Part shown: positions 1 to 31,887 of the stretch, piece after piece | Layout of the letters: every line of letters begins with the position of its first letter | How positions within the stretch are numbered: the first letter of the stretch is position 1 | Assembly: GCA_032718475.1 (NCBI GenBank) | Contig: JAUCBJ010008084.1 | Location: 7,586 to 71,585, forward strand | Source: Nemertoderma westbladi | Lineage: Eukaryota > Animalia > Xenacoelomorpha | DNA length: 64,000 nt | Direction: 5' to 3' | Program-made: the position numbers and the translations under genes | Notes under the pieces: model-generated | Database searches by the model: none | Told to the model about the DNA's origin: nothing | Seen by the model: the letters and a program-made list of their open reading frames with translations, nothing else

Positions 1-3000
1 CTCCGAGTGCGGTTCCGACAATCAGCCGAGTATGCCCCCCTGATACAATTGGACCGAGACGATGTAGATCTGAGGTGTCCGCAGTCAGACGTAAACCGCA
101 TCACCCTACTGATCGGACTTGATACACCGGAATTACAAATACCAACCGGAGATGTCGCCTGATCCATAAATAAGGATGATGGCTTTTACGCTGAACGAAC
201 AATAATGGGATGGACCCTCTGCGGCATCAAGGAAGAGACTACTGACACCTATACATACCTTCCTAAATGTCAGATTAAAGAAAATGCAACATCCGTGGGT
301 TATTGCTCAGCTACAGACCTCGATGAGGATTTATTTCTTGAGACCGAAAAAACCCAGCAAGAGATGACTAAATACTTTAATCTAGAGACCCAAGAGTTCG
401 CTGAAAAGGACAAAAACCCGTCCGAAGAGGATCGATATTGTATGGACGTCCTGGACCAGGCCACGTTCAACGACGGACACTGGTGTTCACCCATGTTGTG
501 GAAGGACCCAAATAAACCAATGGCAAACAACGCCAACATGGCCCTTAGGCGACTTAAGGGGATTCTACGGCGGCTGAATGACCAACCTGAGATAAAGGAG
601 AAATATAATACCGTAATCCAAGGATATCTCGACGACGGATTAGCAGAAATGGTACCATGGAATGAACTGCAAGGGGGTAAAAGAACATATTATCTTCCAA
701 TCCACTACGTGGTAGAAGCCCGGAAGGGTGGTAAAATCCGAGTAGTTAATGATGCCGCTGCTATGTATCAAGGCGAATCCCTGAATAGTCAGCTTTATAC
801 GGGGCCCAACATCTATAGTACACTCATTGGCGTATTGATCAGGTTCAGGGAAAACTGGATAGCATTCACCTGCGACATCAAAGCCATGTTTCACCAAGTT
901 CGTACGCTACCAAGAGACTCAGATTGTCTACGTATCCTATGGACGGATAAAATACTAACTCAACAGGAGATTAGTCAACTTACAATGAAGGATGTAGACA
1001 TAATGCGTATGATCATCAGGATCTTCGGCGCCAAGGACTCGCCGGTAGCATGTAGTGACATGCTGAAAAAGACGGCAACCATGTGCGAAAACGAATTCCC
1101 TCCTACCGTCATAGAAACCATCCGACGATGCTTCTACGTGGACGACGGATGCGCCGGCGCAGATAATGTGGACGAGGCCTATCGGCTAGCAATGGGGATG
1201 GTGGAATGTTTAAAGAAAGGGGGTTTCCCGCTCGTGAAGTTCAGATCCCACGACAAGAAACTTATGGAAAAATTTCCGGAGGACATCCGACTGGACAACA
1301 ACAAAATGTACTCAGAGGATGTGGAACACCGTGTACTCGGGATTGAATCGGACATAGAATCAGACGAATTTATTTTCAAATATAAACCCCTATCCAAGCC
1401 TATGATGAAAAGGGGATGTTTATCGATAAAAAGCGCAATCTTTGACCCACTAAATTTCATATCTCCGGTAACCTTGGCCGGAATAAACCTGATTAAAGAA
1501 ATGTGGATAGAAGGACTGGGATGGGATGAAGAACTCCCCCCACACCTCAGCGTCAAATGGAGAAAATGGACGGACCAGCTCGAACACCTACATCTTATGC
1601 GGATCCCTCGACCGTTCTTCCTCGACAAACTACCCACCGATATCTTCCAGCTCCATACCTTCTCGGATGCTTCGAATACCGGAATCGGCGTAGTCACCTT
1701 CTTACGAAGACTAAGCAACGACGGAAACGGCGATACGAGTTTTTTATTTTCTAAAGCTAAGACAGTATCCGGGGAATTCGTAGCAACGATTCCAAGACTC
1801 GAGCTACAGGCTGCAGTTTGGGCAGTGCGACAGAACCGCATGGTCATGCGGAACCTACGAATCCCCATCGAATCTCAACACTTCTGGGTCGATTCGAGTA
1901 TCGTTCTCTACTATCTCCACTCTCCATCCCGACGTCACACTACGTTTGTAGCGAACCGAGCCACGGAGATAAAACAGTGTACCGCCCGAGAACAGTCGCA
2001 CCACGTAAACGGGAAAGAAAATCCAGCGGACTTATCAAGCCGAGGCGCCACCCCAAAACAACTCAGTAAAAGTAAACTCTGGCTCACAGGCCCGGAATTC
2101 CTACAGCAGCCACAATTAACATGGAGTACCCGATTCGACCCCGAACTCGATAGCGGAAAATACTCCGAGGATGATAAAGAGATCCGTAAAGTCCATAGAA
2201 GCAACGCAGTGGAAATTTATAGCTGTCTGACTGAGCCTGCAAAGGACTCGGGCAGGCACTATAACGTTGCGACGATCATTCAACCAGTGGCGTCTTTACA
2301 TCTGTTGATCGAGCGAACTTCATCAATGAGACGGCTCATCTACCACATTATAACCCTTCGCAACTTCCTACGGTGGAAAGACAACAAGCCGATAGTTCAA
2401 CGGAGTATACAAGAACTCATTATCGCGGAGAAGTGTATCATTGGATATGTCCAGAGAGAAAGTTTCCCCGATGAGTGGGAACAACTCAGTGCGGGCAAGA
2501 CCTTGAAACCGGATAGCCCAGTCTACCAACTGAGACCAATGATGGGAGAGGACGGACTGATCCGACTGAATACCCGGATGGCAAACGCCCCGGTCGAATA
2601 TGAGGTTAAATACCCGGCGCTTCTGCCCGGAACTTCGACACTAGCCAAGCTATTAATTCAACAATGTCACGAGGAAAACCATCACGCAGGACAAAATTGG
2701 ATTATAGCTAATATAAGACAAAGATATTGGATCACACACATCCAGCCACTGATCCGGAAAGTGTTGAAACGTTGCTTTACCTGCAGAAGATATCTTGCGC
2801 CACCACTCACACAAAAGATGGCCGACTTACCAGCCACCCGTCTACAGCCCGATTCCCCACCGTTCTACGTCACCGGAGTGGACTGTTTCGGACCGTTTAC
2901 GGTCATCGAACGACGATCCAACATCAAATGCTGGGGGGCCATATTTACGTGCCTTAGGTCTAGGGCAATCTACCTAGACATTGTGGTGAACCTTACGCAA

Positions 3001-3840
3001 CACTCATTCATCAACGCTCTGCGTCGGTTCGTGGCAAGCAATGGGACATGTCGTCACATGTATTCCGATAATGGCACAAACTTTGTGGGAGGAGAAAGAG
3101 AACTTAGAGAGGCGATCGAGGGATGGTTTACCGATAACACCGCATCCCAAGTCTGGAAGGAACACTAGATACAGTGGCACTTCCAGACCCCCTTAGCACC
3201 CCATACGAGCGGGGTATGGGAGAAACTGATCGACCTAGTAAAACGATCCATGCGCGTCGCTCTAGGAGACACCCGGGTATCCCATGACACCCTCCGCACA
3301 ACATTCTGCGAGATCACGGCTACCCTGAACAACCGACCCATTGTCCCTATCCGCGACGACCCCACAGAAATGGAGCCCCTTACTCCTAATCACCTACTAG
3401 GGAGACCTAAAACTCATGTTCTCCCGGAGACAATGTTTCCGGATCCCAACGATATCGCGAGACATACAAACTGGAAGAAGTCCCAAGCGTTGGCAGCGCA
3501 TTGGTGGAGAATCTGGGCCCAGGAGTACCTCATAACCCTCCAGACCAGGAGGAAGTGGAACCACACCTACAGGAATGTCGAAGTTGGCGACATGGTACTA
3601 GTAAAAGAAGACCTTAAAGACCGCGTCCACTGGCCTGTGGCGCGAGTCGTGGCAATACAACCGAGCAAAGACGGACTTGCGAGGACTGTGACGATACGAA
3701 CGGCAAAGGGCCACTTCCAACGCCCTATCCAGAAGCTGTGCCTTCTTGAAGGCAATGACAGCGGTGACTCTACGAGAGGTGATAAAATCCCTACTCCGGA
3801 TCCTGCTGCGGACATTGGTGACAATGATAAATGCGTTTAA
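1..3840 (+). pseudogene. pol: BEL/Pao pol (RT, Pao RNase H, integrase) with two in-frame stops
   Basis: One frame from position 1: LLIGLD...MGWTLCG, YLPIHYV, RVVNDAA, DIKAMFHQV, FYVDDG, FSDAS, PRLEL, WVDS, NPADLSSRG, HHAG/CFTC, GVDCFGP, SDNGTNFVG, GVWE, LNNRP, LTPNHLL, RPIQKLCLL. In-frame TGA at 160-162 and TAG at 3166-3168; ORFs 205..3168 and 3250..3840 share this frame. Confidence 0.93.
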
Positions 3841-4132
3841 ACCCTTCTCATCCTGTTGACAAACTCTTTTAAACTATGATTTATCGACAATGAAAATGGA
3901 CCCCCCTTAAACCAACTGTAACCACGCAATGGTATTTGTGTTTCCTCGTGTGTTATGTGGAGTCCAGCGTCACCCTGCAGATGTTTCGACTGACGCAGGG
4001 TCGTTTATGTATTGTTTACCCTGATTTTGGTCATCGGGACCGACGATATTGGATTATTGGAAATGGAAAAGATTTGAAGTGGAATTCATTGTATTCATCG
4101 CAGTATGTTATGTTGTCCGTTGCGTGCGCAGT

Positions 4133-4536
4133 TCGGGGCGTAGGCGGTGTAACTAGTCCAGCTGTAGATCCCGGATTGCCGGGCAACACCCCCTCTATCC
4201 CGTTATTCTGGTGGATCCATGGTGCATCCACATGACTTCGACGATAGAGGGTTATGTTTCTCAGTCGCGTTATTCTGGTGGGACCGTTGCGTGGATTTTG
4301 GGGCGTAGGCGGTGTAACTAGTCCAGCTGTAGATCCCAGAATGTTGCGTAACCCCATCCCACATGACTTCATCGACTGAGCTTTATGTTGTTGGGAGTGT
4401 TATTCTGGTGGGTCCCTGGTGCATTCCACGTGACTTCACTTCCAGCGTCTTCATTGTCCGTTACGTGTGCAGTTTGGGGCGTAGGCGGTGTAACTAGCCC
4501 AGCTGTAGATCCCAGATTGCTGCGTAACACCCCTTC
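4133..4536 (+). repeat. Three dispersed copies of a ~60-bp motif in the spacer between pol and the accessory ORF
   Basis: GGGGCGTAGGCGGTGTAACTAGYCCAGCTGTAGATCCC at about 4135, 4300 and 4476. Confidence 0.85.
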
Positions 4537-5193
4537 CACAACAAAGATTTCCCAAAGAAGATGATTGAATGTAGTTGGAAATGATGAAAAGAATCAGACA
4601 ACCTTACTATAAACCGAATGATGACGCGTATGATGATGAAAATGTAATGATGCGCACCCTGGTGCTGCGCTTATAACAAATGATGATAGCCGGGGGGCTA
4701 TAACCCCAATGATGATGTGGAAATGTGGAAATAAATGAAATGTGAAATAAATGGTGGAAATAAATGTGTTGAAATATGTTGAAATAAATGAAATGAGATG
4801 AAATAATAATGAGAAATGAAAAAAGACAAAAAAAAGGTATAAAAAAGTCTAAAGAAAAGAATTGGAAAAAAGAAAAGGACATACTGGTTGGATATTAATG
4901 TATAGCTATAGTAACTGTAAATGCTGAATGTATTAGCAATAAGATGATAGATGCCTATATAGCAATGTTATTAATAAACTGAACTAAAAATAAAACTGAA
5001 TTATTCTGCAATCACTATAGTTTCAGACTTTCTGGACTTATAATTAACTGATCTAATTTGTAACGGATATAATCGTAAATATGGACCCAAATATATTATT
5101 GGCGAATTACGTAACACGATAGATCTACTGGAATATTCGCAACCCGGATCCCCTGACTTTGATACAAATTGGAGTACCCTGCTAAATGAGAAC

Positions 5194-7677
5194 GTGCGAG
5201 TCGTTAAATTCACCGGGCGAGAGGGACCGGATTCCAAGAATCTACGAGCCCTCCGGTTAGCCGATGCTAGTACGAGACTGAAAAGAACTCGGAACGCAAA
5301 GGCAACCGGAGGGGACGATTCGTCGTATTGGGAAACGTTCTGGCAAAGCGTCTACAGATCCCGATGTTTGATCTACGACAACGAGGGAAACGCGACGCCC
5401 ACCTCGAAAGCGATTACGTTGGCGAGATGTCAAAGTTTCGTCGACGACAAGAGTACGTACCTCGCCCACTGGGGAAACCTGTCGGAGTGTACGGCGACAC
5501 TTCGAGAGGAACGTATATCGACCATCCAGAATCGCGACGACTACCAAGAAAAGTATGGGGCGAAAGAATATGGTCGATCCTTGGTCGTCGTCCTCGGAAC
5601 CCTGGACGGTTTGGTATTGGTGTGTCGAATATTTCCGACACCCAGACAGGAAGTGCAGGCAGCCGGAGCGATCTGGTTGCTACCTCCGGAAATCCAAAAG
5701 ATCCTCTTCGACTTCGACGTCATTAAAATCGGGTTGGATATAAAGGCGGACGTCCGGAACGACTACGCGAACGCTCCTTCAGGAAGAAACCGACGAGACG
5801 ACCTCAACGCCCTTAGCCATTGCATCGACACTCAAACGCTACTAGCCTGGTTACGATTCGCCGAGTTCATGCGAGGATTCCAAGAGGTGAGACCGACGAA
5901 ATCCGGGATCGGCTACCTCGCTGTGCTAAACGGCGGCATCGACTTCAAACCCCAGAAATTCCGGGATTATAATAAAATATATGGTGGATACCCGGGATTA
6001 GAAATAAAGAGCGAGCGAGAGGGTCGATGGAAGGACGTTGACCGGAAGTGGACGATACACCAAAGGTGGGAGAATCCCGATCGACGGAACTATATCTACG
6101 TCGTTATGGAGTGCTACACCGTCGCTAAGTTTATCTGTAAAACTCTCGATAACCTCATTACGGCGGTTCCTCTTTCCTTCGTCGACTACGACTGGAACGA
6201 GGTTATAAACCACGCATTCAAAGCGGTTGAGAACATCACACCGGGAAAAACGAAAACGCTCGCCGTTATCGATTCCTGGGATGAGAGCGGACCTTACGAT
6301 ATCCCTACGATTACCGATCTTCTCGGTGCGGAGGAGCCTCTGATTTCTTCGGAAGGGGAAGAAATATGGCTACATGAGGGTGTTCTACTCTCCACCCCGA
6401 AGCGACAACTCGAGCCGGAGGCCGCTTACCAACCGGCAGCCAAACGGGTTGCCTCCACCGAACCAATGACGGAAGCGGGCGTTTCCTCACCACTCGGCTT
6501 CGGTAGCCCTGCGAGGGAGTTGGTTACTACCTTCGCGTTAAACGACTTCGGCGATACATGCCAAAGGTTATCCCCGTATCCTTTCCCGGGTGGCGAAGAC
6601 TGGTCGTCGGAGATTCCGAGTACCAGCAATCAACGGACCCGCTCAGCGATATTGGTCGAGAAGGGCCCCAGCGCTGCGCCGACTCCCGACGATCTCCTCG
6701 GAATCCCTCCGTCGAAAACCCCGGCACCTCTTCGCCGACCAGCGGTGGCTACTACACCCTCCGTTCCTCAGGATCCTATGCGACCAACCCGTTGGTACGC
6801 CGAGCAAACTGAATGGATCCACCGCCAGAAACGGTCGTCCGAGTTGAGACCGACGGGACACAAAGAAGGTTATCATAGCGAGGACCTACTACGCAAAAGC
6901 CCAGCCTTCCGCGGGCTACCGACCACCGCGAATATTCAGAAGAGCGACCGGCGACTCGAGTATTACGTCGGCGTCCCGATCCCGATATTTCCCGGTCGAG
7001 AGATGCAGTTGGAGGTGTGCGGCGACTGTGGTTCGGAGCAGTGCCCACGCGGTAGAAGGAATCGGGTTACCGATTCATGCCTCCAGCTCCTCGGGATACT
7101 TTATTGCCCTTACTGCGCGACATCGGGCCACGACGTTTCCATCTGTCCGATCCTATATAACCTCTGCACCACGTGCGGTTTCCGTGGACATTCCGCTAGC
7201 CCCCGCTGCTATATCAACTGTCCTACCAAAGACGTTACCGCTATGGGAAATATGGTCATGTTTGAAACATACGCAAACAGCCACATAAAGACCAAGGTTC
7301 AGAGAAACGCTCGGAATATCGCGCAGGAGATGGCGTGCGGGTACTTCTTCTTCCCGGAACACCTCCACACGTCGGCCACGCTACCTTTCCATTACGTGGA
7401 TCTGTTGCTGAGCGCCGGATTATTCAGCCCATTCGAAGTCATTAGACGCTTATACTCGTATAAAGAGGAGCTCGGTGACGGAGAGTGGTTCCTCGAGGCT
7501 CGCAACTCCGAGTTGGAACGACGAACCGATATGATCCCGTTGCCATCGAAAGGAAGAGCCGCCAGGAGACAAGCCGAAGCGTTGCTCACGATGGACGTTG
7601 ACGCTCCTCTACCAGCTATAGCGATCGACGAGAGCCGACGGGCGAAGAGGCGAAAGACGTATCAGAGAAAGAAATAG
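5194..7677 (+). CDS. Accessory ORF: putative DEDD 3'-5' exonuclease (WRN/EXD2/Mut-7-like), Pro-rich linker and zinc-knuckle cluster
   Basis: Uninterrupted 827 aa; the frame is open from 5044 with no early ATG. Motifs LIYDNEG (ExoI DxE), LPPEIQKIL...KIGLDIKAD (ExoII), IDTQ, SGIGYLA, W...YVVME (ExoIII-like); CGDC...C, CPYCATSGHDVSIC, CTTCGFRGH...C. Confidence 0.8.
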   Translation: MRVVKFTGREGPDSKNLRALRLADASTRLKRTRNAKATGGDDSSYWETFWQSVYRSRCLIYDNEGNATPTSKAITLARCQSFVDDKSTYLAHWGNLSECTATLREERISTIQNRDDYQEKYGAKEYGRSLVVVLGTLDGLVLVCRIFPTPRQEVQAAGAIWLLPPEIQKILFDFDVIKIGLDIKADVRNDYANAPSGRNRRDDLNALSHCIDTQTLLAWLRFAEFMRGFQEVRPTKSGIGYLAVLNGGIDFKPQKFRDYNKIYGGYPGLEIKSEREGRWKDVDRKWTIHQRWENPDRRNYIYVVMECYTVAKFICKTLDNLITAVPLSFVDYDWNEVINHAFKAVENITPGKTKTLAVIDSWDESGPYDIPTITDLLGAEEPLISSEGEEIWLHEGVLLSTPKRQLEPEAAYQPAAKRVASTEPMTEAGVSSPLGFGSPARELVTTFALNDFGDTCQRLSPYPFPGGEDWSSEIPSTSNQRTRSAILVEKGPSAAPTPDDLLGIPPSKTPAPLRRPAVATTPSVPQDPMRPTRWYAEQTEWIHRQKRSSELRPTGHKEGYHSEDLLRKSPAFRGLPTTANIQKSDRRLEYYVGVPIPIFPGREMQLEVCGDCGSEQCPRGRRNRVTDSCLQLLGILYCPYCATSGHDVSICPILYNLCTTCGFRGHSASPRCYINCPTKDVTAMGNMVMFETYANSHIKTKVQRNARNIAQEMACGYFFFPEHLHTSATLPFHYVDLLLSAGLFSPFEVIRRLYSYKEELGDGEWFLEARNSELERRTDMIPLPSKGRAARRQAEALLTMDVDAPLPAIAIDESRRAKRRKTYQRKK

Positions 7678-7842: not shown

Positions 7843-7850
7843 GGGGGGGA
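7843..7850 (+). other. Polypurine tract of element 1
   Basis: GGGGGGGA followed by C and then TGTT; element 2 has GGGGGGGAG before TGTT. Confidence 0.75.
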
Positions 7851-8259
7851 CTGTTCGCGGTATTTCAACTTTTCATAACGCGAGTTGAATATTTTTTGTA
7901 TTTATTAAAAACGATTATTCCGATATCACTACTGGGTGCGGGACCATGGGTTTTGGGCACATTCTATAAACTGGGGGCGATTTATGGGCGAACTTTGGGG
8001 CGACTTACAGGGAACGGGACTAATTTCATGTTTATAAGGGCCAGGGGGGATGGAAAATTCAAGCAGTATTCAGGTTAGCCTGATTACTATTAGGCCCTGG
8101 CCAACTTCCTGCTGCCTGTAGAGGTGGATTTGGTAACGTGCCAGGCCTAAAGGACAAGGACTGCTCTTAGCAGTCCCTGGCCAACAGCAGTTATTACGAG
8201 CCTGAAAAGGACATCGGAACGCCAGCTGCTTGCGTCAGGGATTTGCGACGGGAAACGAC

Positions 8260-9268
8260 AGCCCCCTTAGCCAAGCCGTGTACTGGTTCTCGATGACCGA
8301 TCCCTTCGGGGTTCGCGAGGGGTGGGACGGACACGCGAAAGGGCGGCCGACTTACAGAGGAAGGGTTTGACAAGGACTGCCCTTAGCGGTCTCTGGTCAA
8401 CAGCAGTTATTACGAGCCTGAAAAGGACATCGGAACGCCGGCTGCTTGTACCAGGGATTTGCGACGGGAACTGACGACAGACCCCTTAGCCAAGCCGTAC
8501 TGGTTCTCGATGATCGTTCCCTTCGGGGTTCGTGAGGGGTGGGACGGACACGCGACGGGGTCGAAAGACAAAGGACTGGACTCTACTGGCCTACCGACTG
8601 TTCGGAGCAGTTTCTCGGCTGCCGAAGCGACTACGAGCCTGAAAGGGACTCGGAAAGCCTAGGTGGTTGGGTTTCTGCGATGAACCGACGGACCCCTAGC
8701 CAAGCCGTACTGGTTCTCGATGATCGAGCCCTTCGGGGTTCGGGAGGGGTGGGACGGACACGCGAACGGGTCCACCGACACGACAGACTCCTAGCCAAGC
8801 CGTACTGGTTCTCGATGACCGATCCCTTCGGGGTTCGAGAGGGGTGGTACGGATACGCGACAGAGTCTACCGACTGGACCGACCCTTAGCCAAGCCGTGC
8901 TGGTTCTCGATGATCGTTCCCTTCGGGGTTCGTGAGGGGTGGGATGGACACGCGACGGGGTCGAAAGACAAAGGACTGGACTCTACTGGCCTACCGACTG
9001 TTCGGAGCAGTTTCTCGGCTGCCGAAGCGACTACGAGCCTTAAAGGGACTCGGAAAGCCTAGGTGGTTGGGTTTCTGCGATGAACCGACGGACCCCTAGC
9101 CAAGCCGTACTGGTTCTCGATGATCGAGCCCTTCGGGGTTCGGGAGGGGTGGGACGGACACGCGAACGGGTCCACCGACACGACAGACTCCTAGCCAAGC
9201 CGTACTGGTTCTCGATGATCGATCCCTTTGGGGTTCGGGAGGGGTGGAACGGACACGCGACAGGGTCG
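8260..9268 (+). repeat. Seven copies of an ~80-nt structured hairpin module inside the LTR, including a 400-bp tandem duplication (8481-8880 / 8881-9270)
   Basis: TAGCCAAGCCGTACTGGTTCTCGATGAN5CCCTTCGGGGTTCGNGAGGGGTGGGACGGACACGCGA, with GATGA at 8292, 8509, 8719, 8814, 8909, 9119 and 9214. Confidence 0.9.
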
Positions 9269-9453
9269 ACCGACACCGACACTACGGCATCAAGACTAGG
9301 ACCGAGGGAAAATCTGGGGAACATTAGTTAGGCTAAAATCTGAGCGAACAGTGGGTAATTAAATAATATACTGTAGGGATTTATATTGTCGTGTATAATT
9401 ATTGTGAATATTTGGTGTATATTGATTTGGGGAAGCCCAAAATTACTCTCAAT

Positions 9454-9681: not shown

Positions 9682-12600
9682 GATAGTTAACACATGTCAC
9701 AAGATTATGCAGGATACTAAAGGAGCAGGTTATAGAGGCGGGTAGATAGAACCAAAACAATAAACGATAGTTAACACATGTTGCAAGATTATGCAGGTTA
9801 GTACAGGAGCAGACTATAGAGGCGGGAAGATAGAATCAAAACAATAAACGATAGTTAACACATGTTACAATATTATGCAGGTTAGTAAAGAAGCAGGCTA
9901 TAGAGGCGGGTAGATAGAACCAAAACAATAAACGATAGTTAACACATGTTACTAGATTATGCAGGTTAGTAAAGCAGCAGGTTATAGAGGCGGGTGGATA
10001 GAACCAAAACATTAAACGATAGTTTAACACATGTTACAAGATTATGCCGGTTAGTAAAGGAGCAGGTTATAGAGGCGGGTAGATAGAACCAAAACAATAA
10101 ACGATAGTTAACACATGTTACAAGATTATGCAGGTTAGTAAAGGAGCAGGTTATAGAGGCGGGTAGATAGAACCAAAACAATAAACGATAGTTAACACAT
10201 GTTACTAGATTATGCAGGTTAGTAAAGCAGCAGGTTATAGAGGCGGGTGGATAGAACCAAAACATTAAACGATAGTTTAACACATGTTACAAGATTATGC
10301 CGGTTAGTAAAGGAGCAGGTTATAGAGGCGGGTAGATAGAACCAAAACAATAAACGATAGTTAACACATGTTACAAGATTATGCAGGTTAGTAAAGGAGC
10401 AGGTTATAGAGGCGGGTAGATAGAACAAAACAGTAAACGATAGTTAACACATGTTACAAGATTATGCAGATTAGTAAAGGAGCAGGTTATAGATGCGGGT
10501 AGATAGAACCAAAACAATAAACGATAGTTAACACATGTTACAAGATTATGCAGGATAGTAAAGGAGCAGACTATAGAGGCGGGAAGATAGAACCAAAACA
10601 TTAAACGATAGTTAACACATGTTACAAGATTATGCAGGTTAGTAAAGGAGCAGGCTATAGAAGAGGGTAGATAGAACCAAAACAATAAACGATAGTTAAC
10701 ACATGTTACAAGATTATGTAGGTTAGTAAAGGAGCAGGTTATAGAGGCGGGTAGATAGAACCAAAACAATAAACGATAGTTAACACATGTTACAAGATTA
10801 TGCAGGTTAGTAAAGGAGCAGGCTATAGAAGAGGGTAGATAGAACCAAAACAATAAACGATAGTTAACACATTTTACAAGCTTATGTAGGTTAGTAAAGG
10901 AGCAGGTTATAGAGGCGGGTAGATAGAACCAAAACAATAAACGATAGTTAACATATGTTACAAGATTATGCAGGTTAGTAAAGGAGCAGGTTACAGAGGC
11001 AGGTACATAGAACCAAAACAATAAACGATAGTTAACACGTGTTACTAGAATATGCAGGTTAGTAAAGGAGCAGGTTATAGAGGCGGGTAGATAGAACGAA
11101 AACAATAAACGATAGTTAACACATGTTACAAGATTATGCAGGATAGTAAAGGAGCAGGTTATAGAGGCGGGTAGATAGAACCAAAACAATAAACGATAGT
11201 TAACACACGTTACAAGATTATGCAGGTTAGTAAAGGAGCAGGTTATAGAGGCGGGTAGATAGAACCAAAACAATAAACGATAGTTAACATATGTTACAAG
11301 ATTATGCAGGTTAGTAAAGGAGCAGGTTACAGAGGCGGGTAGATAGAACCAAAACAATAAACGATAGTTAACACACGTTACAAGATTATGCAGGTTAGTA
11401 AAGGAGCAGGTTATAGAAGAGGGTAGATAGAACCAAAACAATAAACGATAGTTAACACACGTTACAAGATTATGCAGGTTAGTAAAGGAGCAGGTTACAG
11501 AGGCGGGTAGATAGAACCAAAACAATAAACGATAGTTAACACATGTTCCAAGATTATGCAGGATAGTAAAGGAGCAGGTTATAGAGGCGGGTAGATAGAA
11601 TCAAAACAATAAACGATAGTTAACACATGTTACAAGATTATGCAGGTTAGTAAAGCAGCAGGTTATAGAGGCGGGTAGATAGAACCAAAACAATAAACGA
11701 TAGTTAACACATGTTCCAAGATTATGCAGGATAGTAAAGGAGCAGGTTATAGAGGCGGGTAGATAGAACCAAAACATTAAACGATAGTTAACACATGTTC
11801 CAAGATTATGCAGGATAGTAAAGGAGCAGGTTATAGAGGCGGGTAGATAGAACCAAAACAATAAACGATAGTTAACACAGGTTACAAGCTTATGCAGGTT
11901 AGTAAAGGAGCAGGTTATAGAGGCGGGTAGATAGAACCAAAACAATAAACGATAGTTAACATATGTTACAAGATTATGCAGGTTAGTAAAGGAGCAGGTT
12001 ATAGAGGCGGGTAGATAAAACCAAAACAATAAACGATAGTTAACATATGTTACAAGATTATGCAGGTTAGTAAAGGAGCAGGTTACAGAGGCAGGTACAT
12101 AGAACCAAAACAATAAACGATAGTTAACACGTGTTACTAGAATATGCAGGTTAGTAAAGGAGCAGGTTATAGAGGCGGGTAGATAGAACCAAAACAATAA
12201 ACGATAGTTAACACATGTTCCAAGATTATGCAGGATAGTAAAGGAGCAGGTTATAGAGGCGGGTAGATAGAACCAAAACAATAAACGATAGTTAACACAT
12301 GTTACAAGCTTATGCAGGTTAGTAAAGGAGCAGACTATAGAGGCGGGAAGATAGAACCAAAACAATAAACGATAGTTAACACATGTTACAATATTATGCA
12401 GGTTAGTAAAGGAGCAGACTATAGAGGCGGGAAGATAGAATCAAAACAATAAACGATAGTTAACACATGTTGCAAGATTATGCAGGTTAGTAAAGGAGCA
12501 GACTATAGAGGCGGGTAGATAGAACCAAAACAATAAACGATAGTTAACACATGTTACAAGATTATGTAGGTTAGTACAGGAGCAGGTTATAGATGCGGGT

Positions 12601-15600
12601 AGATAGAACCAACATAATAAACGATAGTTAACACATGTTACAAGATTATGCAGGTTAGTAAAGCAGCAGGTTATAGAGGCGGGTGGATAGAACCAAAACA
12701 TTAAACGATAGTTTAACACATGTTACAAGATTATGCCGGTTAGTAAAGGAGCAGGTTATAGAGGCGGGTAGATAGAACCAAAACAATAAAAGATAGTTAA
12801 CACATGTTACAAGATTATGCCGGTTAGTAAAGGAGCAGGTTATAGAGGCGGGTAGATAGAACCAAAACAATAAACGATAGTTAACATATGTTACAAGATT
12901 ATGCAGGTTAGTAAAGGAGCAGGTTATAGAGGCGGGTAGATAGAACCAAAACAATAAACGATAGTTAACACATGTTACAAGATTATGCCGGTTAGTAAAG
13001 GAGCAGGTTATAGAGGCGGGTAGATAGAACCAAAACAATAAACGATAGTTAACACATGTTCCAAGATTATGCAGGATAGTAAAGGAGCAGGTTATAGAAG
13101 AGGGTAGATAGAACCAAAACAATAAACGATAGTTAACACATGTTACAAGATTATGCCGGTTAGTAAAGGAGCAGGTTATAGAGGCGGGTAGATAGAACCA
13201 AAACAATAAACGATAGTTAACACATGTTACAAGATTATGCAGGTTAGTAAAGGAGCAGGTTATAGAGGCGGGTAGATAGAACCAAAACAATAAACGATAG
13301 TTAACACATGTTATAAGATTATGCAGGTTAGTAAAGAAGCAGGCTATAGAGGCGGGTAGATAGAACCAAAACAATAAACGATAGTTAACACATGTTATAA
13401 TATTATGCAGGTTAGTAAAGAAGCAGGCTATAGAGGCGGGTAGATAGAACCAAAACAATAAACGATAGTTAACACATGTTATAAGATTATGCAGGTTAGT
13501 AAAGAAGCAGGCTATAGAGGCGGGTAGATAGAACCAAAACAATAAACGATAGTTAACACATGTTATAAGATTATGCAGGTTAGTAAAGAAGCAGGCTATA
13601 GAGGCGGGTAGATAGAACCAAAACAATAAACGATAGTTAACACATGTTACAAGATTATGTAGGTTAGTAAAGGAGCAGTTATAGAGGTGGGTAGATAGAA
13701 CCAAAACAATAAACGATAGTTAACACATGTTACAAGATTATGTAGGTTAGTAAAGGAGCAGTTATAGAGGTGGGTAGATAGAACCAAAACAATAAACGAT
13801 AGTTAACACATGTTATAAGATTATGCAGGTTAGTAAAGAAGCAGGCTATAGAGGCGGGTAGATAGAACCAAAACAATAAACGATAGTTAACACATGTTAT
13901 AAGATTATGCAGGTTAGTAAAGAAGCAGGCTATAGAGGCGGGTAGATAGAACCAAAACAATAAACGATAGTTAACACATGTTACAAGATTATGCAGGATA
14001 GTAAAGGAGCAGGTTATAGAGGCGGGTAGATAGAACCAAAACAATAAACGATAGTTAACAGATGTTACAAGATTATGCAGGTTAGTAAAGGAGCAGGTTA
14101 TAGAGGCGGGTAGATAGAACCAAAACAATAAACGATAGTTAACACATGTTACAAGATTATGTAGGTTAGTAAAGGAGCAGTTATAGAGGCGGGTAGATAG
14201 AACCAAAACAATAAACGATAGTTGACACATGTTACAAGATTATGCAGGTTAGTAAAGGAGCAGACTATAGAGGCAGGTAGATAGAACCAAAACAATAAAC
14301 GATAGTTAACACATGTTACAAGATTATGCAGGATAGTAAAGGAGCAGGTTATAGAGGCGGGTAGATAGAACCAAAACAGTAAACAATAGTTAACACATGT
14401 TACAAGATTATGCAGGTTAGTAAAGGAGCAGACTATAGAGGCGGGAAGATAGAACCAAAACAATAAACGATAGTTAACACATGTTATAAGATTATGCAGG
14501 TTAGTAAAGAAGCAGGCTATAGAGGCGGGTAGATAGAACCAAAACAATAAACGATAGTTAACACATGTTATAAGATTATGCAGGTTAGTAAAGAAGCAGG
14601 CTATAGAGGCGGGAAGATAGAACCAAAACAATAAACGATAGTTAACACATGTTATAAGATTATGCAGGTTAGTAAAGAAGCAGGCTATAGAGGCGGGTAG
14701 ATAGAACCAAAACAATAAACGATAGTTAACACATGTTATAAGATTATGCAGGTTAGTAAAGGAGCAGGTTATAGAGGCGGGTAGATAGAACCATAACATT
14801 AAACGATAGTTTAACACATGTTACAAGATTATGCCGGTTAGTAAAGGAGCAGGTTATAGAGGCGGGTAGATAGAACCAAAACAATAAACGATAGTTAACA
14901 CATGTTACAAGATTATGCCGGTTAGTAAAGGAGCAGGTTATAGAGGCGGGTAGATAGAACCAAAACAATAAACGATAGTTAACATATGTTACAAGATTAT
15001 GCAGGTTAGTAAAGGAGCAGGTTATAGAGGCGGGTAGATAGAACCAAAACAATAAACGATAGTTAACACATGTTACAAGATTATGCCGGTTAGTAAAGGA
15101 GCAGGTTATAGAGGCGGGTAGATAGAACCAAAACAATAAACGATAGTTAACACATGTTCCAAGATTATGCAGGATAGTAAAGGAGCAGGTTATAGAAGAG
15201 GGTAGATAGAACCAAAACAATAAACGATAGTTTAACACATGTTACAAGATTATGCCGGTTAGTAAAGGAGCAGGTTATAGAGGCGGGTAGATAGAACCAA
15301 AACAATAAACGATAGTTAACACATGTTACAAGATTATGCCGGTTAGTAAAGGAGCAGGTTATAGAGGCGGGTAGATAGAACCAAAACAATAAACGATAGT
15401 TAACATATGTTACAAGATTAAGCAGGTTAGTAAAGGAGCAGGTTATAGAGGCGGGTAGATAGAACCAAAACAATAAACGATAGTTAACACATGTTACAAG
15501 ATTATGCCGGTTAGTAAAGGAGCAGGTTATAGAGGCGGGTAGATAGAACCAAAACAATAAACGATAGTTAACACATGTTCCAAGATTATGCAGGATAGTA

Positions 15601-18462
15601 AAGGAGCAGGTTATAGAAGAGGGTAGATAGAACCAAAACAATAAACGATAGTTAACACATGTTACAAGATTATGCCGGTTAGTAAAGGAGCAGGTTATAG
15701 AGGCGGGTAGATAGAACCAAAACAATAAACGATAGTTAACACATGTTACAAGATTATGCAGGTTAGTAAAGGAGCAGGTTATAGAGGCGGGTAGATAGAA
15801 CCAAAACAATAAACGATAGTTAACACATGTTATAAGATTATGCAGGTTAGTAAAGAAGCAGGCTATAGAGGCGGGTAGATAGAACCAAAACAATAAACGA
15901 TAGTTAACACATGTTATAATATTATGCAGGTTAGTAAAGAAGCAGGCTATAGAGGTGGGTAGATAGAACCAAAACAATAAACGATAGTTAACACATGTTA
16001 TAAGATTATGCAGGTTAGTAAAGAAGCAGGCTATAGAGGCGGGTAGATAGAACCAAAACAATAAACGATAGTTAACACATGTTATAAGATTATGCAGGTT
16101 AGTAAAGAAGCAGGCTATAGAGGCGGGTAGATAGAACCAAAACAATAAACGATAGTTAACACATGTTATAAGATTATGCAGGTTAGTAAAGAAGCAGGCT
16201 ATAGAGGTGTGTAGATAGAACCAAAACAATAAACGATAGTTAACACATGTTACAAGATTATGCAGGATAGTAAAGGAGCAGGTTATAGAGGCGGGTAGAT
16301 AGAACCAAAACAATAAACGATAGTTAACACATGTTACAAGATTATGCAGGTTAGTAAAGGAGCAGGTTATAGAGGCGGGTAGATAGAACCAAAACAATAA
16401 ACGATAGTTAACACATGTTACAAGATTATGTAGGTTAGTAAAGGAGCAGTTATAGAGGCGGGTAGATAGAACCAAAACAATAAACGATAGTTGACACATG
16501 TTACAAGATTATGCAGGTTAGTAAAGGAGCAGACTATAGAGGCAGGTAGATAGAACCAAAACAATAAACGATAGTTAACACATGTTACAAGATTATGCAG
16601 GATAGTAAAGGAGCAGGTTATAGAGGCGGGTAGATAGAACCAAAACAGTAAACAATAGTTAACACATGTTACAAGATTATGCAGGTTAGTAAAGGAGCAG
16701 ACTATAGAGGCGGGAAGATAGAACCAAAACAATAAACGATAGTTAACACATGTTATAAGATTATGCAGGTTAGTAAAGAAGCAGGCTATAGAGGCGGGTA
16801 GATAGAACCAAAACAATAAACGATAGTTAACACATGTTATAAGATTATGCAGGTTAGTAAAGAAGCAGGCTATAGAGGCGGGAAGATAGAACCAAAACAA
16901 TAAACGATAGTTAACACATGTTATAAGATTATGCAGGTTAGTAAAGAAGCAGGCTATAGAGGCGGGTAGATAGAACCAAAACAATAAACGATAGTTAACA
17001 CATGTTATAAGATTATGCAGGTTAGTAAAGGAGCAGGTTATAGAGGCGGGTAGATAGAACCATAACAATAAACGATAGTTAACACATGTTACAAGATTAT
17101 GTAGGTTAGTAAAGGAGCAGTTATAGAGGCGGGTAGATAGAATCAAAACAATAAACGATAGATAACACATGTTACTAGATTATGCAGGTTAGTAAAGGAG
17201 CAGGTTATAGAGGCGGGTAGATAGAACCAAAACAATAAACGATAGTTAACACATGTTACAAGATTATGCAGGTTAGTAAAGGAGCAGGTTATAGATGCGG
17301 GTAGATAGAACCAACATAATAAACGATAGTTAACACATGTTACAAGATTATGCAGGTTAGTAAAGGAGCAGGTTATAGAGGCGGGTAGATAGAACCAAAA
17401 CAATAAACGATAGTTAACACATGTTACAAGATTATGCAGGTTAGTAAAGGAGCAGGTTATAGAGGCGGGTAGATAGAACCAAAACAATAAACGATAGTTA
17501 ACACATGTTACAAGATTATGTAGGTTAGTAAAGGAGCAGTTATAGAGGCGGGTAGATAGAATCAAAACAATAAACGATAGATAACACATGTTACTAGATT
17601 ATGCAGGTTAGTAAAGGAGCAGGTTATAGAGGCGGGTAGATAGAACCAAAACAATAAACGATAGTTAACACATGTTACAAGATTATGCAGGTTAGTAAAG
17701 GAGCAGGTTATAGATGCGGGTAGATAGAACCAACATAATAAACGATAGTTAACACATGTTACAAGATTATGTAGGTTAGTAAAGGAGCAGTTATAGAGGC
17801 GGGTAGATAGAATCAAAACAATAAACGATAGATAACACATGTTACTAGATTATGCAGGTTAGTAAAGGAGCAGGTTATAGATGCGGGTAGATAGAACCAA
17901 CATAATAAACGATAGTTAACACATGTTACAAGATTATGCAGGTTAGTAAAGGAGCAGGATATAGAGGCGGGTAGATAGAACCAAAACAATAAACGATAGT
18001 TAACACATGTTACAAGATTATGCCGGTTATTAAAGGAGCAGGTTATAGAGGCGGGTAGATAGAACCAAAACAATAAACGATAGTTAACCACATGTTACAA
18101 GATTATGCAGGATAGTAAAGGAGCAGGTTATAGAGGCGGGTAGATAGAACCAAAACAATAAACGATAGTTAACACATGTTACAAGATTATGCAGGATAGT
18201 AAAGGAGCAGGTTATAGAGGCGGGTAGATAGAACCAAAACAATAAACAATAGTTAACACATGTTACAATATTATGCAGGTTAGTAAAGGAGCAGGTTATA
18301 GAGGCGGGTAGATAGAACCAAAACAATAAACGATAGTTAACACATGTTACAAGATTATGCAGGTTAGTAAAGGAGCAGGCTATAGAAGAGGGTAGATAGA
18401 ACCAAAACAATAAACGATAGTTAACACATGTTACAAGCTTATGTAGGTTAGTAAAGAAGCAG
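9682..18462. repeat. 84-bp satellite array, left arm (about 105 monomers)
   Basis: Consensus GTTAACACATGTTACAAGATTATGCAGGTTAGTAAAGGAGCAGGTTATAGAGGCGGGTAGATAGAACCAAAACAATAAACGATA, head-to-tail. Confidence 0.98.
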
Positions 18463-18971
18463 TGTTAGCTTATTCAATTCCGCTAACACAAACCCATAAA
18501 GTAAGCCGTTAAGCAATATTGGGGGCCACGAGGTTGATTACCCAATCTCGTGCCACCCCAATAAAATGGGAAGGAGAAACACACAATAAGGGTCAGGGGC
18601 CACACCCCTGACCGAGAGAGAATAGCAGGAGTGAGGGAAACACTCCAAAGGGCGCCAACAGGGATATCAGCCAATGGGAGGGAGGCACCGGCTAGGTACA
18701 GTAACAAGGCCAACCCGTGCAATATAACCAGTTAACGGTAATCAGTTATTTCAGTTATCTCATTGTGTTGGTCGGTTTAGTTAGGTTAGGACCGGAACTT
18801 TAATTACCGTTGCGTAACCACTGTGCAGACACCCTATTCTATATCTATACTATTATACCGGAGGACTTTATACAGCAATCAACAATATCCACCTTTTACA
18901 CACACACGGCGGGAACGCGACGCGTAAATCAAAAACCGGATAAACCGGGATCCTTTGTGGATCCCGTCACA
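18463..18971 (+). repeat. 5' LTR of element 2
   Basis: TGTTAGC...GTCACA; near-identical to 31888-32396 (three substitutions seen by eye). Confidence 0.97.
18721..18757 (+). promoter_or_regulatory. Candidate LTR core promoter (TATA-like AATATAA followed by Inr-like TCAGTT)
   Basis: AATATAA at 18721-18727 and TCAGTT at 18751-18756, about 30 nt apart. Motif match only. Confidence 0.4.
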
Positions 18972-19039
18972 GTAATTAAAGACCAACCTAGTAATTAAAT
19001 CCTAGAACTCCAGCCAGCTACCGACACTCTACCTATGAG

Positions 19040-22000
19040 ATGAGCGACGTTACGCCAACGCGGACCCCGGAGGAAGACCCAACGATTCGGGAGGCCGTGA
19101 CCAGACGGTATAGGCCCACGACGCCGGACCCATCGGTAACGGGTCATCCGGCAGATCAGGATGGAGGGGACCGTCTGGAACCAGAGATCGAGCCGAGAGG
19201 AGCGGGAGCCGAGTTGGGAGAAGGAGAGGGCGAGAGGGACGGAGAAGAAGATGAGTCGACACGGAACTAGGGTCGACGTACCGATGTCGCCGGCCAGCCA
19301 CAGGCCGTGGGCGACGAACGGCCCACCGAAACGGCGACGGTGGGGCCGACGGTACGACGCCGGACCCGGAGAGATGGGGGAGATGTCGGTACCGATGTTG
19401 CCGGCCAGCTACAGGCCGAGGGCGACGGACGGCCCACCGGAACGGCGACGGTGGGGCCACCGGTACGACGTCGGACCCGGAGAGACGGAGGAGAGGTCGG
19501 CGACGAGGACGTCGGGGTTTCTGATCGACTTCGACGGGCCTACAACGCGACCCGGAAGCTACTTAAGGAGGCCAAGGAGGGGGCGAAGATAGATGAGGTA
19601 AAGCTGACAACAGGACTAGGTGAGTTGGATAGACATTTTAATTATCTAATGCGCTTCGGGCAGAGAGAACTGGCCAAGGAGAGAGCGAGAGGGGTTGCAG
19701 AGGAACTGTGTGATTTATGGCGGTGTAGGGGTATGCAACCTAGTGCAGTGTATGTAGGGCCATACTTAGTCGATGCCCAGGGTATAAAATCAGTGGGTTG
19801 GAGGAGACATGAGGAGGGCGAATCCGAGGTTGACCGCGAGGATTCGATCTCGTCGATCGGAGGAAGTTCTGGGAAGAGGGGGAAAGTTAGTAGGTCGGGA
19901 AGGCGGAGGGAATCCGTCGTAACCGATAAGTCTGCTACATCCTCCGTAAAAGAAAGACGGGTGAGAGAGATAAATGCCACGTACCATCTCGACCTGATTG
20001 CGCAAGGTCAGAGAGAGTTATGTAGATGGTTAGAGGAGGGGAGAATGCAACTAGAGAAGGAAATGGTACTGATTAGAGAAACCGGAGAGAGGGCCGAAAG
20101 GGCCGCGAAAAGCCTTAGAGAGTGTGAGGAAATAGAGAGGAGGGAACAAGAGGAGCGTGAGGCGAGACGGGAAAGTGAACGCAAAGAGCGTGAGGCGGAA
20201 CGCAAGGAGCGTGAGACGAGAGAGAACAATGAACGCAAGGAACGCGAGGCGAGAGAGGAAAATGAACGCAAGGAACATGAGGCGAGGGAGGAAAGTGAGC
20301 GCAAAGAGCGTGAGGCGAGGCGAAGGGAGGGAGCTAGGAGAGAGGCGGAATTGGCCGAACAGAACGCACGGGAGAGTCGGGAGAGAATGGCAAGAGAGGT
20401 GCGTGAGCGAAAAGAATTGGAAAGACAGCAAGGCGAGCTTATAGAGTACAAAACTAGACGTATGCGCGAACTGGAACTAGCGTGGATGGGGGCGTCTGAG
20501 AGCGGGGCTGACTCGAAGATTTTCGAGGAGCCAAGGGCCGTGGATATGTTTATTAATACCCCATTTACAGGGACCGCACGACAGACCCGAAATTGGTGTG
20601 ACCGTACGGGCCGGGGGGGTAATAATAATACTACAGTAGACGACGTTAATATTAATGGTACCGTATTGGATAATCCTAACCAAGCATATATTGCAGGAAA
20701 TACTTTGCCTGGTAGTAGTGATTTGAATTTAAACACAAATAATCTAAATAATAATTTCAATTTAAACGTGCAAAATAATCCGAATAATAATTTAAATTTA
20801 GAAAATAATGATAACTCAAATAATTTAAATAATGATCCAAGCCCGAATTTACAAAATAATTCAAATAATGTAGTCGCGCAAAATAATCAAAATGATTCTA
20901 TTTCGAACGAACAAAATAATTCCGTTTCTAACACAGGTGCTATTAATGCGAACGCGTCGGACGTGTATAACCCGACAGACGCCGGCCTGGTAGGCCACGT
21001 AGTTAGTAGGCAGGAGGTGGCGGGGTTGAGTCGACCCGACGGCGGCCTAGTAGGCCACGTAGTTAGTAGGCAGGAGGTGGCGGGGTTGAGTCGAGCCGAC
21101 GGCGGCCTGGTAGGCCACGTAGTTAGTAGGCAGGGGGTGGCGGGGTTGAGCCAACCCGGAGTAGGCCCGATAGGCCAAGTAGTGGTGGAGAGAGAGGCGG
21201 GGGTAAGCGAACCCAGCCGCAGTAGAAATATTGTGTCGACTGGAGAGGGGTGTAGAAGAGAAGTTAGTGGCAAGTGGGGGGGGGGGGCTACAGGAGCCCC
21301 GCAACGAGAAGTTAGCGACGAGTGGGGGGGGGCTACAGGAGCCCCACAACGAGAAGTTGGTGGCGAGGGGGGGGGCAGAGAATGTCCCACAGGCGTCGGC
21401 GGATAATGCGCGGGCCGAATCAGGTAAACCGCAACACCCGGCGACGGAGAGTAATAGGGGGATTGCGAGTATCCCCAGCGGCGTGCGATCGAGCAGAGAG
21501 AGGCAGGTTGATGTCGCGAGAGGGCGGACGAAGCGTCGAGCCCGATCAGAAGAGGGAAGAAGAACAGTGGAGTTTAACCGGGAGGTCGACGAGAGATCTC
21601 ATGAGCGGGAATACTGCACTGAAAGGAGAAGTAGTAGAAGAAGTATCGCCGCGAATGACAGGAGAGCGAGGACGGATAGCGAGCCGTCGGTAGTTGAGAT
21701 GGAAAGAGAGAGTCGGTGGGGTCGAACCTCGGGAGATTGCCGTCGTCCCGGAGAGACGCAACCTGACGAGACGCGTTACGCGTCGAGAGAGGGGTACACG
21801 ATGTACCAGCACGAAGACGAGAGTAGTAGAGGGGGTCGAAGAGAAACTTTCCGACGGGATATACCTACAGATCGAGAGTACGGTAGCCGCGGGGAGGATT
21901 GTTCGAGAAGAATAAACTTCGATCCCGAGCAACACATACAGACTGTAGGACATACTGTAGGCCTTACTGCACATACCATAGGCCATGCTGACAGGAATAA

Positions 22001-22280
22001 TATAGGCGATAGGATAGCGCGGACAATGGAATTAAACCCGGATGTCGCGGAGTACATACCGGCAGGTAGGCCAGAAGTTGATAGGCCTATACCGGTACCA
22101 GTACAGCAGTATGACTACAGCATGCAAGGACATAACATATACCCAGGGGAGGGGGGAATTATTGCGGATAGATGCATGGGCCCCAATATATTAACATCAA
22201 CCCCAGTACCAAACATACCGGTGGGGGGGGGGGACAGGGTGACATTCCCCCATCGCAATATCAACAATATACCCCGATAG
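19040..22280 (+). pseudogene. gag: Long low-complexity N-terminal extension of gag, interrupted
   Basis: ATG at 19040; in-frame TAG at 19268-19270 then ORF 19307..21406 in the same frame. Overlapping ORFs 21231..22280 and 22172..27571 join across poly-G runs (about 21276-21375 and 22223-22233). Contains an E/R coiled-coil, an Asn-rich tract, and ~117-, 60- and ~40-bp internal repeats. Confidence 0.65.
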
Positions 22281-27571: not shown

Positions 27572-27679
27572 ATCGTTTGTTAGAAGGGAGTTTAGTCGTC
27601 CAAGTTTGGACTGAGGGGGGTGGGATTGAGGGCGAAGCGCCCTTCCCACACATAAAATAAAAATAAAATAAATAAAAAT

Positions 27680-28400
27680 TAGAGTTAGTTAGTTAGTTAG
27701 AACTTACGTAGTACCGGTGGTTAGTAGAGTTGGGAGTTAGTTAGAAGGTACGTAGTACCTAGAGTTAGTTAGTTAGTTAGTTAGGAATTAGCTACAAGGT
27801 ACGTAGTACCTAGAGCTAGTTAGTTAGTTAGGAGTCAATTAGAAGGTACGTAGTACCTAGAGTTAGTTAGTTAGTTAGTTAGGAGGTACGTAGTACCGAG
27901 AGTTAGGAGTCAGTTAGTTAGAGGTGTTAGAGAAGTAGTAAGAGGGTACGTAGTACCGGTGGTTAGTAGAGTTAGAGGTTAGTAAGAGGGTACGTAGTAC
28001 CGGTGGTTAGTAGAGTTAGAGGTTAGTAAGAGGGTACGTAGTACCGGTGGTTAGTAGAGTTAGAGGTTAGTAAGAGGGTACGTAGTACCGGTTAGTAAGA
28101 GTAGAGTTGGAAGTTAGTAAGAGGGTACGTAGTACCGATAGTTAGTGGAGTAGTTAGAGGGTACGTAGTACTGTTAGTTAGAGAGTAGTAAGAGGGTGCG
28201 TAGTACCATTAGTGGAGTTAGAGTAAGAGTTAGAGGGTACGTAGTACCGTTAATTAGGGAGAGAGAGTAAGAGTTAGAGGGTTCGTAGTACCGCTAGTTA
28301 GGGAAAGAGAGTAAGAGTTAGAGGGTACGTAGTACCGCTAGTTAGTTAGAGGTTAGTAAGAGGGTACATAGTACCGATTAGTAAGAGATAGAGGTAGAAG
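27680..28400 (+). repeat. Irregular tandem array with a GGTACGTAGTACC core and (GTTA)n/purine-rich spacers
   Basis: About 16 copies of the GGTAC-GTA-GTACC inverted core, spaced roughly 35-60 bp apart. Confidence 0.9.
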
Positions 28401-28815
28401 GGTATATATAGTATAGATATTAGTCAGTAGTTAGTAGCGAGAGGGGGGCATATGAGTACAGTTGGATAGATCGTGTAGGCCACGCGACATATACTGCTGT
28501 ACTGCACAGGCCCATAGAGTAGGTCAGAATGTGGATTATGGAATAGAATAATCCATAAACAGTAAAGTAGTAGAATTAAGTTAAATCAAAATAAATAGAA
28601 TAAATAGGGCTAAAAAATTACAGATTATGGTAACAGCAGGGAAATTATTCTGGAACATAATTAAAGAAACGGACAGAAATTGTAAATTAGGGTACATTTC
28701 TTAGCTACAGAATTAAGTAATAGAAATTTAGGCTAAAAGGCGTAGTTAGATAGGAAATAGGCCATTCTCGAACTGTACAGACCATCAGAAACTTATCACT
28801 CATCTGTATTGCGCC

Positions 28816-31878: not shown

Positions 31879-31887
31879 GGGGGGGAG
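31879..31887 (+). other. Polypurine tract of element 2
   Basis: GGGGGGGAG directly 5' of the 3' LTR. Confidence 0.9.

Follow-up and report, generated by a model that had tools for sequence, protein, structure and literature searches.

A predicted DEDDy nuclease with Cys/His knuckles is encoded by an old, selected accessory gene of a widespread BEL/Pao retrotransposon lineage

The stretch of Nemertoderma westbladi DNA analyzed here (the window: 64,000 nucleotides of contig JAUCBJ010008084.1, assembly GCA_032718475.1, positions 7,586 to 71,585 of the forward strand) contains two BEL/Pao long terminal repeat (LTR) retrotransposons, elements 1 and 2, each with an additional gene between the integrase region of pol and the 3' LTR, that is, in the env position. 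We refer to this gene as the cargo and conclude that it genuinely belongs to a widespread BEL/Pao lineage, as an accessory gene that is old and under selection. The features of element 1 are as follows.

163 to 3840, + strand: pol (reverse transcriptase, RNase H region, integrase, DUF5641), the 5' part of which lies outside the window
3841 to 5043, + strand: pol-cargo spacer, containing short repeats and an AT-rich segment
5044 to 7677, + strand: cargo reading frame, 877 codons, stop-free, on the pol strand
5320 to 6177, + strand: predicted DEDDy-type 3'-5' exonuclease domain (D112, E114, D236, Y352, E356)
6241 to 6976, + strand: Pro/Ser-rich linker, not conserved across the family
7018 to 7221, + strand: three Cys/His knuckles, the second CX2CX4HX4C, the third CX2CX4HX5C, the first atypical
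7261 to 7411, + strand: conserved unnamed domain downstream of the knuckles, with an FE..A..G..T..R...GFF pattern and no Pfam match
7843 to 7850, + strand: polypurine tract; 166 bases separate the end of the cargo frame from the tract and LTR
7852 to 9350, + strand: 3' LTR, beginning TGTT, with internal 95/400-bp tandem repeats

Element 1 pol is matched in Pfam by Peptidase_A17 (E 2.3e-37) and DUF5641 (E 3e-30), and the cargo lies where the original prediction, made from these nucleotides alone, had put it: downstream of a BEL/Pao pol, on the same strand as that pol, and ahead of the purine tract and the LTR. The same prediction described an intact frame of 827 residues. The frame in fact has 877 codons and cannot be called intact, as its earliest in-frame Met is residue 276, with no in-frame ATG before it, cargo copies in public runs vary in length at the start region (about 5050-5100), and there is an in-frame stop inside pol at 3166-3168. 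Because of the missing ATG and the pol stop, we consider that the window copy of element 1, with its cargo, is probably dead or inactive. Its spacer (3841-5043) would be a likely place for a splice acceptor or for the promoter of a separate transcript. The family of element 1 is very abundant in runs from the same organism (X1, X3), with a summed contig depth of tens of thousands that about doubles over the LTR, depth not being the same as copy number.

All of the motifs that had been claimed for the cargo protein, from DNE to YVVME, are present where they were placed: DNE at 5377-5385, LPPEIQ at 5680, KIG at 5725, D236 at 5749, DTQ at 5827, GIGYLA at 5905 and YVVME at 6097-6111. D112, E114 and D236 align with the Exo I and Exo II columns of the family, also when the profile is built without this protein, and behind Exo I a 57-residue insertion separates the DxE strand from the one that follows. 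Exo III has the form YxxxE in the element 1 protein and in members W2, P0002 and P0005, and Y/HxxxD in 11 other members with a full site. The linker is rich in Pro and Ser as described (21% versus 9% in the nuclease domain), and the three knuckles do form a cluster, although the first departs from the description in lacking the His seen in its relatives. Atlas matches for the knuckle module all fall below 0.9 and are leads only. In one family member, P0003, the knuckle and C-terminal module is duplicated.

The fold of the N-terminal domain is predicted to be that of a DEDDy nuclease of the WRN/EXD2/Nibbler group, the family to which it was originally assigned. When both window proteins are left out of the profile, each still scores 63 bits against it (the best of 200 shuffles scored -0.2). 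The best match of the family profile is human EXD2, at E 5.6e-13; Egalitarian follows at 0.01, the proofreading domain of a plastid polymerase at 0.015, trypanosome RNase D at 0.039 and WRN at 0.32. A model built from 32 family rows reached a predicted local distance difference test score (pLDDT) of 72.8, low in the insertion; folding from a single sequence gave 31. In the VIA structure comparison Nibbler ranked best (Z 12.9, root-mean-square deviation 3.7, 178 aligned residues), with NrnC-type proteins at 12.2, polymerase proofreading domains at 12.0, WRN at 11.8, EXD1 at 10.8, Egalitarian and trypanosome RNase D both at 10.0 and Rrp6 nearby, and all 50 rows listed are what we take to be DEDD nucleases or proteins containing that domain. 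A search of viral structures returned mostly 3'-5' exonucleases, with E values about as weak as those from Foldseek. The fold itself fixes neither subfamily nor substrate.

The single cargo protein had no match in Pfam or PDB searches, and a word-based homolog search was also empty; BLAST of the two window nuclease domains against each other aligns Exo I only (8/20, E 0.005). PF01612 is reached by just two of 36 members, the other 34 being missed even at E<=1, and 24 of 30 Atlas feature matches of the cargo protein carry PF01612, the top six being unnamed. The profile and structure checks proposed with the original prediction were split in outcome, positive for the family profile and VIA and negative for single-protein Pfam and for Foldseek at E<=0.001. 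An env-type transmembrane anchor and fusion-protein homology were not found in the cargo. By hydropathy there is no membrane segment in the element 1 protein outside the nuclease core, since the highest 19-residue value before residue 110 is -0.16 and the sole stretch above 1.6 (176-199) lies within nuclease strands. Basic clusters of the kind that form nuclear localization signals are no commoner than in shuffled sequences.

Element 2 lies complete within the window.

18463 to 32396, + strand: whole element, with LTRs, purine tract and AGCAG target duplication; very divergent from element 1
18463 to 18971, + strand: 5' LTR, 509 bp, with the target duplication AGCAG just before it
22172 to 27571, + strand: gag-pol frame, 1799 residues (DUF1759, protease, reverse transcriptase, Peptidase_A17, integrase, DUF5641)
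28750 to 31237, + strand: cargo gene, broken, of the same family as the element 1 cargo, between integrase and 3' LTR
28945 to 29598, + strand: nuclease domain of the cargo, with D-E-D-Y-E residues
29725 to 29727, + strand: stop in the cargo, with a frame change near 30664
30502 to 30663, + strand: knuckles
31888 to 32396, + strand: 3' LTR, preceded by a purine tract, then AGCAG

Its gag with DUF1759, its pol in the order protease, reverse transcriptase, RNase H and integrase, its DUF5641, and its paired TG...CA LTRs with purine tract and 5-bp target duplication agree with the domain set and order, LTRs, purine tract and 5-bp duplication described for BEL/Pao in the available text of de la Chaux and Wagner (2011, PMC3118150). 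The two LTRs are identical at 506 of 509 positions (99%). Stops and frame changes in gag (19271-22280) and cargo stand beside the open gag-pol frame and these near-identical LTRs, and possibly element 2 moved recently while already damaged. Tandem repeats of 44-51 bp occupy part of its pol-cargo spacer (27720-28382). No TGG-type transfer RNA (tRNA) primer site is seen after the element 2 5' LTR (18972-19010) or after the element 1 LTR (9351-9390); at both places the elements carry GTAATTAAA, which could be a splice donor or reflect unusual priming. In element 2, ten bases of GTAATTAAA could pair with a complementary site within the LTR of that element, which prompted the idea of self-priming with exonuclease-trimmed primers as a family trait; we rejected it, as relatives (L023, L027, L040, L059 and L080) have ordinary TGG sites.

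How general is the association of this cargo with BEL pol? An exhaustive search found seven relatives of the cargo protein, four to five of which have the knuckle module as well as the N-terminal domain. A knuckle pattern at the DNA level, which finds both window genes and had no match in 100 shuffles, returned at least 120 matches in metagenome contigs; nine matches in viral contigs were dismissed as chance, each having a knuckle score below 6 bits. Flanking sequence was examined for 80 of the metagenome matches, to which the following locus counts refer. In 23 of the 80, BEL pol lies upstream on the same strand at a distance of 0.6-4.1 kb from the knuckle motif; no case on the opposite strand is listed. 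With an iterated profile, 31 loci score at least 100 bits for the N-terminal nuclease domain: 19 have BEL pol directly upstream, eight are uninformative (fewer than 500 bases before the frame) and four have room but no pol. Accordingly, in 19 of 23 informative contigs the cargo directly follows BEL pol, which, together with the LTRs and target duplication that bound element 2, bears out the linkage that the original prediction had proposed as a check. Among the four loci without pol, one (L057) has a gag remnant, and L037 and the twin contigs L026/L077 have no retroelement gene upstream; among the eight uninformative loci, L027 has the gag-protease of this lineage downstream. Because the metagenome relatives belong to BEL/Pao, their hosts are expected to be animals, judging from the available text of PMC3118150.

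Some of these loci show other states of the cargo region. L057 (5187-10931), a non-autonomous derivative in which the cargo region persists, is bounded by direct repeats and holds a gag remnant of this lineage and a cargo gene but no pol. L019 (7702-9204), L062 (1101-3959) and L038 are BEL elements whose second gene has knuckles and no nuclease domain detectable by profile; the first two seem, by eye, to carry far-decayed nuclease versions, and L038 has none.

The cargo and pol have also descended together. For 20 elements with both domains, 12 of 17 splits are common to the integrase tree and the nuclease tree (the remaining splits have support of 81 or less), and the two sets of distances are correlated (Mantel r 0.88; 0 of 5000 permutations). 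A control scan for other BEL pols, sought as a cargo-less outgroup, found none. Because the elements share kinship, this agreement demonstrates long co-inheritance, not co-adaptation, and the cargo dates back as far as the divergence of pol within the lineage. The original suggestion of a captured host-type nuclease retained as cargo holds as to retention, by selection; a recent capture from the host finds no support here.

Purifying selection is evident both among copies and between related contigs. Copies of element 1 in four runs from three samples differ at 45 places in 5350-6130, and the 40 listed comprise 32 synonymous and eight replacement changes, neighboring changes being scored one by one, against an expected synonymous share of 30% (p 7e-11). 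The ratio of replacement to synonymous rates (dN/dS) among these copies, proposed earlier as a test, is about 0.1, and the five catalytic codons carry none of the 40 changes. When related contigs are compared, eight of 11 pairs (the other three are saturated) give a nuclease dN/dS of 0.04-0.50, and all six pairs available for the knuckle module give 0.02-0.31.

Selection of this kind does not seem to depend on an active site. The 37 aligned members include 15 with D-E-D-(Y/H)-D/E, two cut before Exo I, eight partly changed and 12 with two or fewer of the four acidic residues. Eight of those 12 group together on the integrase tree with support of 93/90, and the paired integrase and nuclease trees give this group 97 and 87; it is a branch in which, judging from the residues lost, catalysis has very likely disappeared. 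The five measurable pairs within this dead-site branch have dN/dS of 0.04-0.40, and because the branch thus remains under purifying selection, we conclude that the nuclease domain is kept even after the very likely loss of catalysis.

The gene may also have a second kind of carrier. A related gene with nuclease and knuckles, broken into short pieces with intron-like gaps (profile E 5e-5 and 8e-5, DxE visible), sits upstream of a large C2H2-finger gene in L025 and L018, and L014 has the same layout as far as its contig reaches. According to the available text of PMC12730594, CMC(T) transposases have C(2)C and H(3-4)H between the second Asp and the last Glu; the large gene in L025 and L014 has H-x4-H and then Glu, as in CMC-type transposases, and C(2)C was not seen. 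Pfam and PDB name only its C2H2 fingers, and inverted repeats bounding an element were not found in loci of this type. L014 and L025 have a further conserved, unnamed gene of 500-600 residues downstream of the C2H2-finger gene.

Juno and Vesta, LTR elements of bdelloid rotifers, are Ty3/gypsy-like. DEDDy third open reading frames (ORF3s) have been published for them and for Terminons (Rodriguez, Kenefick and Arkhipova, 2017, PMC5408684), and on the available text of that paper, by description only, the points in common with our cargo are a separate frame after pol in the env position, a DEDDy fold, no membrane segment and, since the bdelloid ORF3 is common to unrelated element classes, possibly more than one class of carrier. 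Juno and Vesta differ in having a frameshifted gag-pol, dUTPase and GPY/F-type integrases and are not BEL/Pao; their nuclease is RNase D-like with DEED, the only Cys/His feature noted is a Cys-His-Cys motif, with no triple knuckle or C-terminal domain, its catalytic residues are described as intact and no dead branch is mentioned, and acquisition was read as recent. In what was available of PMC6338049, PMC5718144 and PMC6431247 only the rotifer case is cited. Dada DNA transposons also carry a DEDDy nuclease; in fungal and brown-algal families it is built into the transposase and is not a separate gene (available text of Kojima and Jurka, 2013, PMC3706591). Among cellular proteins, human EXD2 (6k17) is the best profile match and Drosophila/Aedes Nibbler (7jw6, 7jw2) the best structural match, but identity to EXD2, Nibbler, WRN, EXD1 and Egalitarian is 10-18%, and our family differs from them in its long insertion before Exo III, its fusion to knuckles and its mobility; the N-terminal membrane anchor described for EXD2 (PMC6648332, available text) is absent from the element 1 protein. 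Trypanosoma brucei RNase D (TbRND) likewise joins a DEDDy nuclease to a C-terminal zinc finger and acts on small RNA, but it is a cellular mitochondrial-editing enzyme, not transposon-borne, with another zinc module and linker (PMC7797062, available text). Consequently the cargo is not unprecedented, DEDDy transposon cargo being already known (PMC5408684, PMC3706591), and the novelty first claimed for it narrows to BEL/Pao: our search of full-text literature, with most subscription journals, Repbase and GyDB outside its reach, found no report of an exonuclease cargo there, and in the available main text of PMC3118150 env is the only extra gene named and the word exonuclease is absent.

A major question arising from these observations is "What does the cargo do for its element?" The reading we favor, which we regard as plausible though a little short of probable, is that its product binds RNA, or trims RNA, against host silencing. 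The cargo would be expressed from a separate transcript, spliced or internally started, and its substrate would be RNA rather than DNA; the knuckles would hold single-stranded RNA and pass it on to the nuclease domain, just as a zinc finger accompanies guide-RNA trimming in TbRND. Versions with an active site would then trim RNA 3' ends and so weaken the silencing or surveillance to which the host subjects the element, and dead-site versions may serve as binders or decoys, like EXD1 and Maelstrom; the target may be PIWI-interacting or small interfering RNAs (piRNA/siRNA), their precursors or the machinery handling them. Among the closest relatives by structure and by profile are enzymes that trim small RNAs and inactive proteins that bind RNA: Nibbler is a small-RNA trimming enzyme and Egalitarian an inactive RNA-binding pseudo-nuclease. 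Because the dead-site branch is selected and intron-split relatives sit beside a transposase-like gene, the role seems tied neither to reverse transcription nor to catalysis, and we favor RNA surveillance because a retrotransposon and a DNA transposon both face it, although both also make DNA ends. In the available text of PMC5408684 a silencing role was entertained for the rotifer ORF3, and EXD1 and Maelstrom are catalytically inactive DEDD proteins of piRNA biogenesis; in that of PMC12730594, an accessory gene common to transposon superfamilies is read as an escape from silencing. The most specific form of the proposal, in which a Nibbler/EXD2-like nuclease with triple knuckles trims or sequesters piRNA/siRNA as an animal transposon's counter-defense, has diverged into active enzymes and pseudo-nuclease decoys and has passed between BEL/Pao and cut-and-paste DNA transposons, we think unlikely in its entirety.

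Several points weigh against a role in RNA silencing. The top VIA rows (Nibbler, NrnC-type, polymerase proofreading and WRN) are tied within about 1 Z and EXD2 acts on DNA and RNA both (PMC6648332), so such a fold does not give the substrate. Foldseek ranks EXD2 first but gives no match at E<=0.001. The last acidic residue is Glu in place of Asp, on the alignment a conservative change, and the large gene in L014, L018 and L025 is a probable rather than a confirmed DNA transposase. In the rotifers, the available account (PMC5408684) reports no clear link of the ORF to copy number, and intragenomic variation of ORF3 (env-like and GDSL frames) looked neutral.

Could the cargo instead serve the element's own transcript, as an Egalitarian-like RNA chaperone or transport adaptor for packaging, 3'-end maturation or germ-line delivery, with catalysis optional? 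The knuckles are the best-conserved part of the protein, loss of catalysis is tolerated, Egalitarian is the second profile match (VIA Z 10.0), and processing of the element's own 3' ends was suggested for the rotifer ORF3 (PMC5408684), all of which make this possible. We nevertheless find it doubtful, as Gag already has nucleocapsid knuckles (in the gag frames of element 2 and L027), a full active site persists in 15 of 37 members across deep divergence, and most BEL/Pao elements, on the available text of PMC3118150, manage with gag-pol alone. A protein trimming or protecting DNA 3' ends at integration, or in repair of the insertion site, would suit DDE integrase and DDE transposase alike; it would be in keeping with the DNA-end enzymes EXD2 and WRN among the best matches and with the DNA-end role proposed for the Dada domain (PMC3706591). 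A whole conserved branch without metal-binding residues, a gene separate from pol and the lack of support for nuclear targeting make this quite improbable.

More remote still is the proposal, made with the original prediction, that the cargo assists reverse transcription by proofreading, clearing of complementary DNA or primer trimming. The fold is that of polymerase proofreading domains, the gene co-descends with pol, and both window elements lack a visible tRNA primer site, but a proofreading or primer-processing partner is made very improbable by the ordinary primer sites of the five relatives, by the dead-site branch and by the relatives beside a transposase-like gene without reverse transcriptase. 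Relatives whose active site is intact do use ordinary tRNA primer sites. That the cargo is a host gene fragment or chance neighbor, useless to the element, we consider largely refuted and scarcely credible: both window copies are damaged, and three contigs (two distinct sequences, L037 and L026/L077) have no retroelement gene upstream, but its place between LTRs flanked by a target duplication speaks against it, and so do the linkage to pol, the descent in common with pol and the purifying selection.

The family bears on why LTR elements keep third genes that are not envelope genes. It offers material that the rotifer case did not: divergent members by the dozen, evidence of purifying selection and of common descent with pol, naturally occurring versions with active and with dead sites, one family of very high copy number within a single genome, and perhaps a second carrier that lacks reverse transcriptase. 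If the protein does act on small RNAs, it would be a rare animal transposon-encoded silencing suppressor. Its function is directly testable because the family is broad, is split into active and dead forms and may be shared with DNA transposons. Such cargo has probably been overlooked in repeat annotation because Pfam misses nearly all of its members.

Both elements are associated with an 84-bp satellite, which fills 9682-18467 (~105 copies) and 32397-40167 (~93 copies): element 2 was inserted into it with a target duplication, element 1 abuts it, and the association could be due to targeting or to passive accumulation. The window shows only the 3' end of element 1, hence a single LTR, the far end of which is ambiguous, at 9350 (a 7-bp inverted end) or 9681 (the start of the satellite); at 1.5-1.8 kb it exceeds the 0.2-1.2 kb quoted for BEL/Pao (PMC3118150, available text). 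Tandem repeats with units of 95 and 400 bp span 8483-9281 within this LTR. In the AT-rich right part of the window there are long inverted repeats the size of miniature inverted-repeat transposable elements at 51324-52273, 59374-59753 and 62338-62673.

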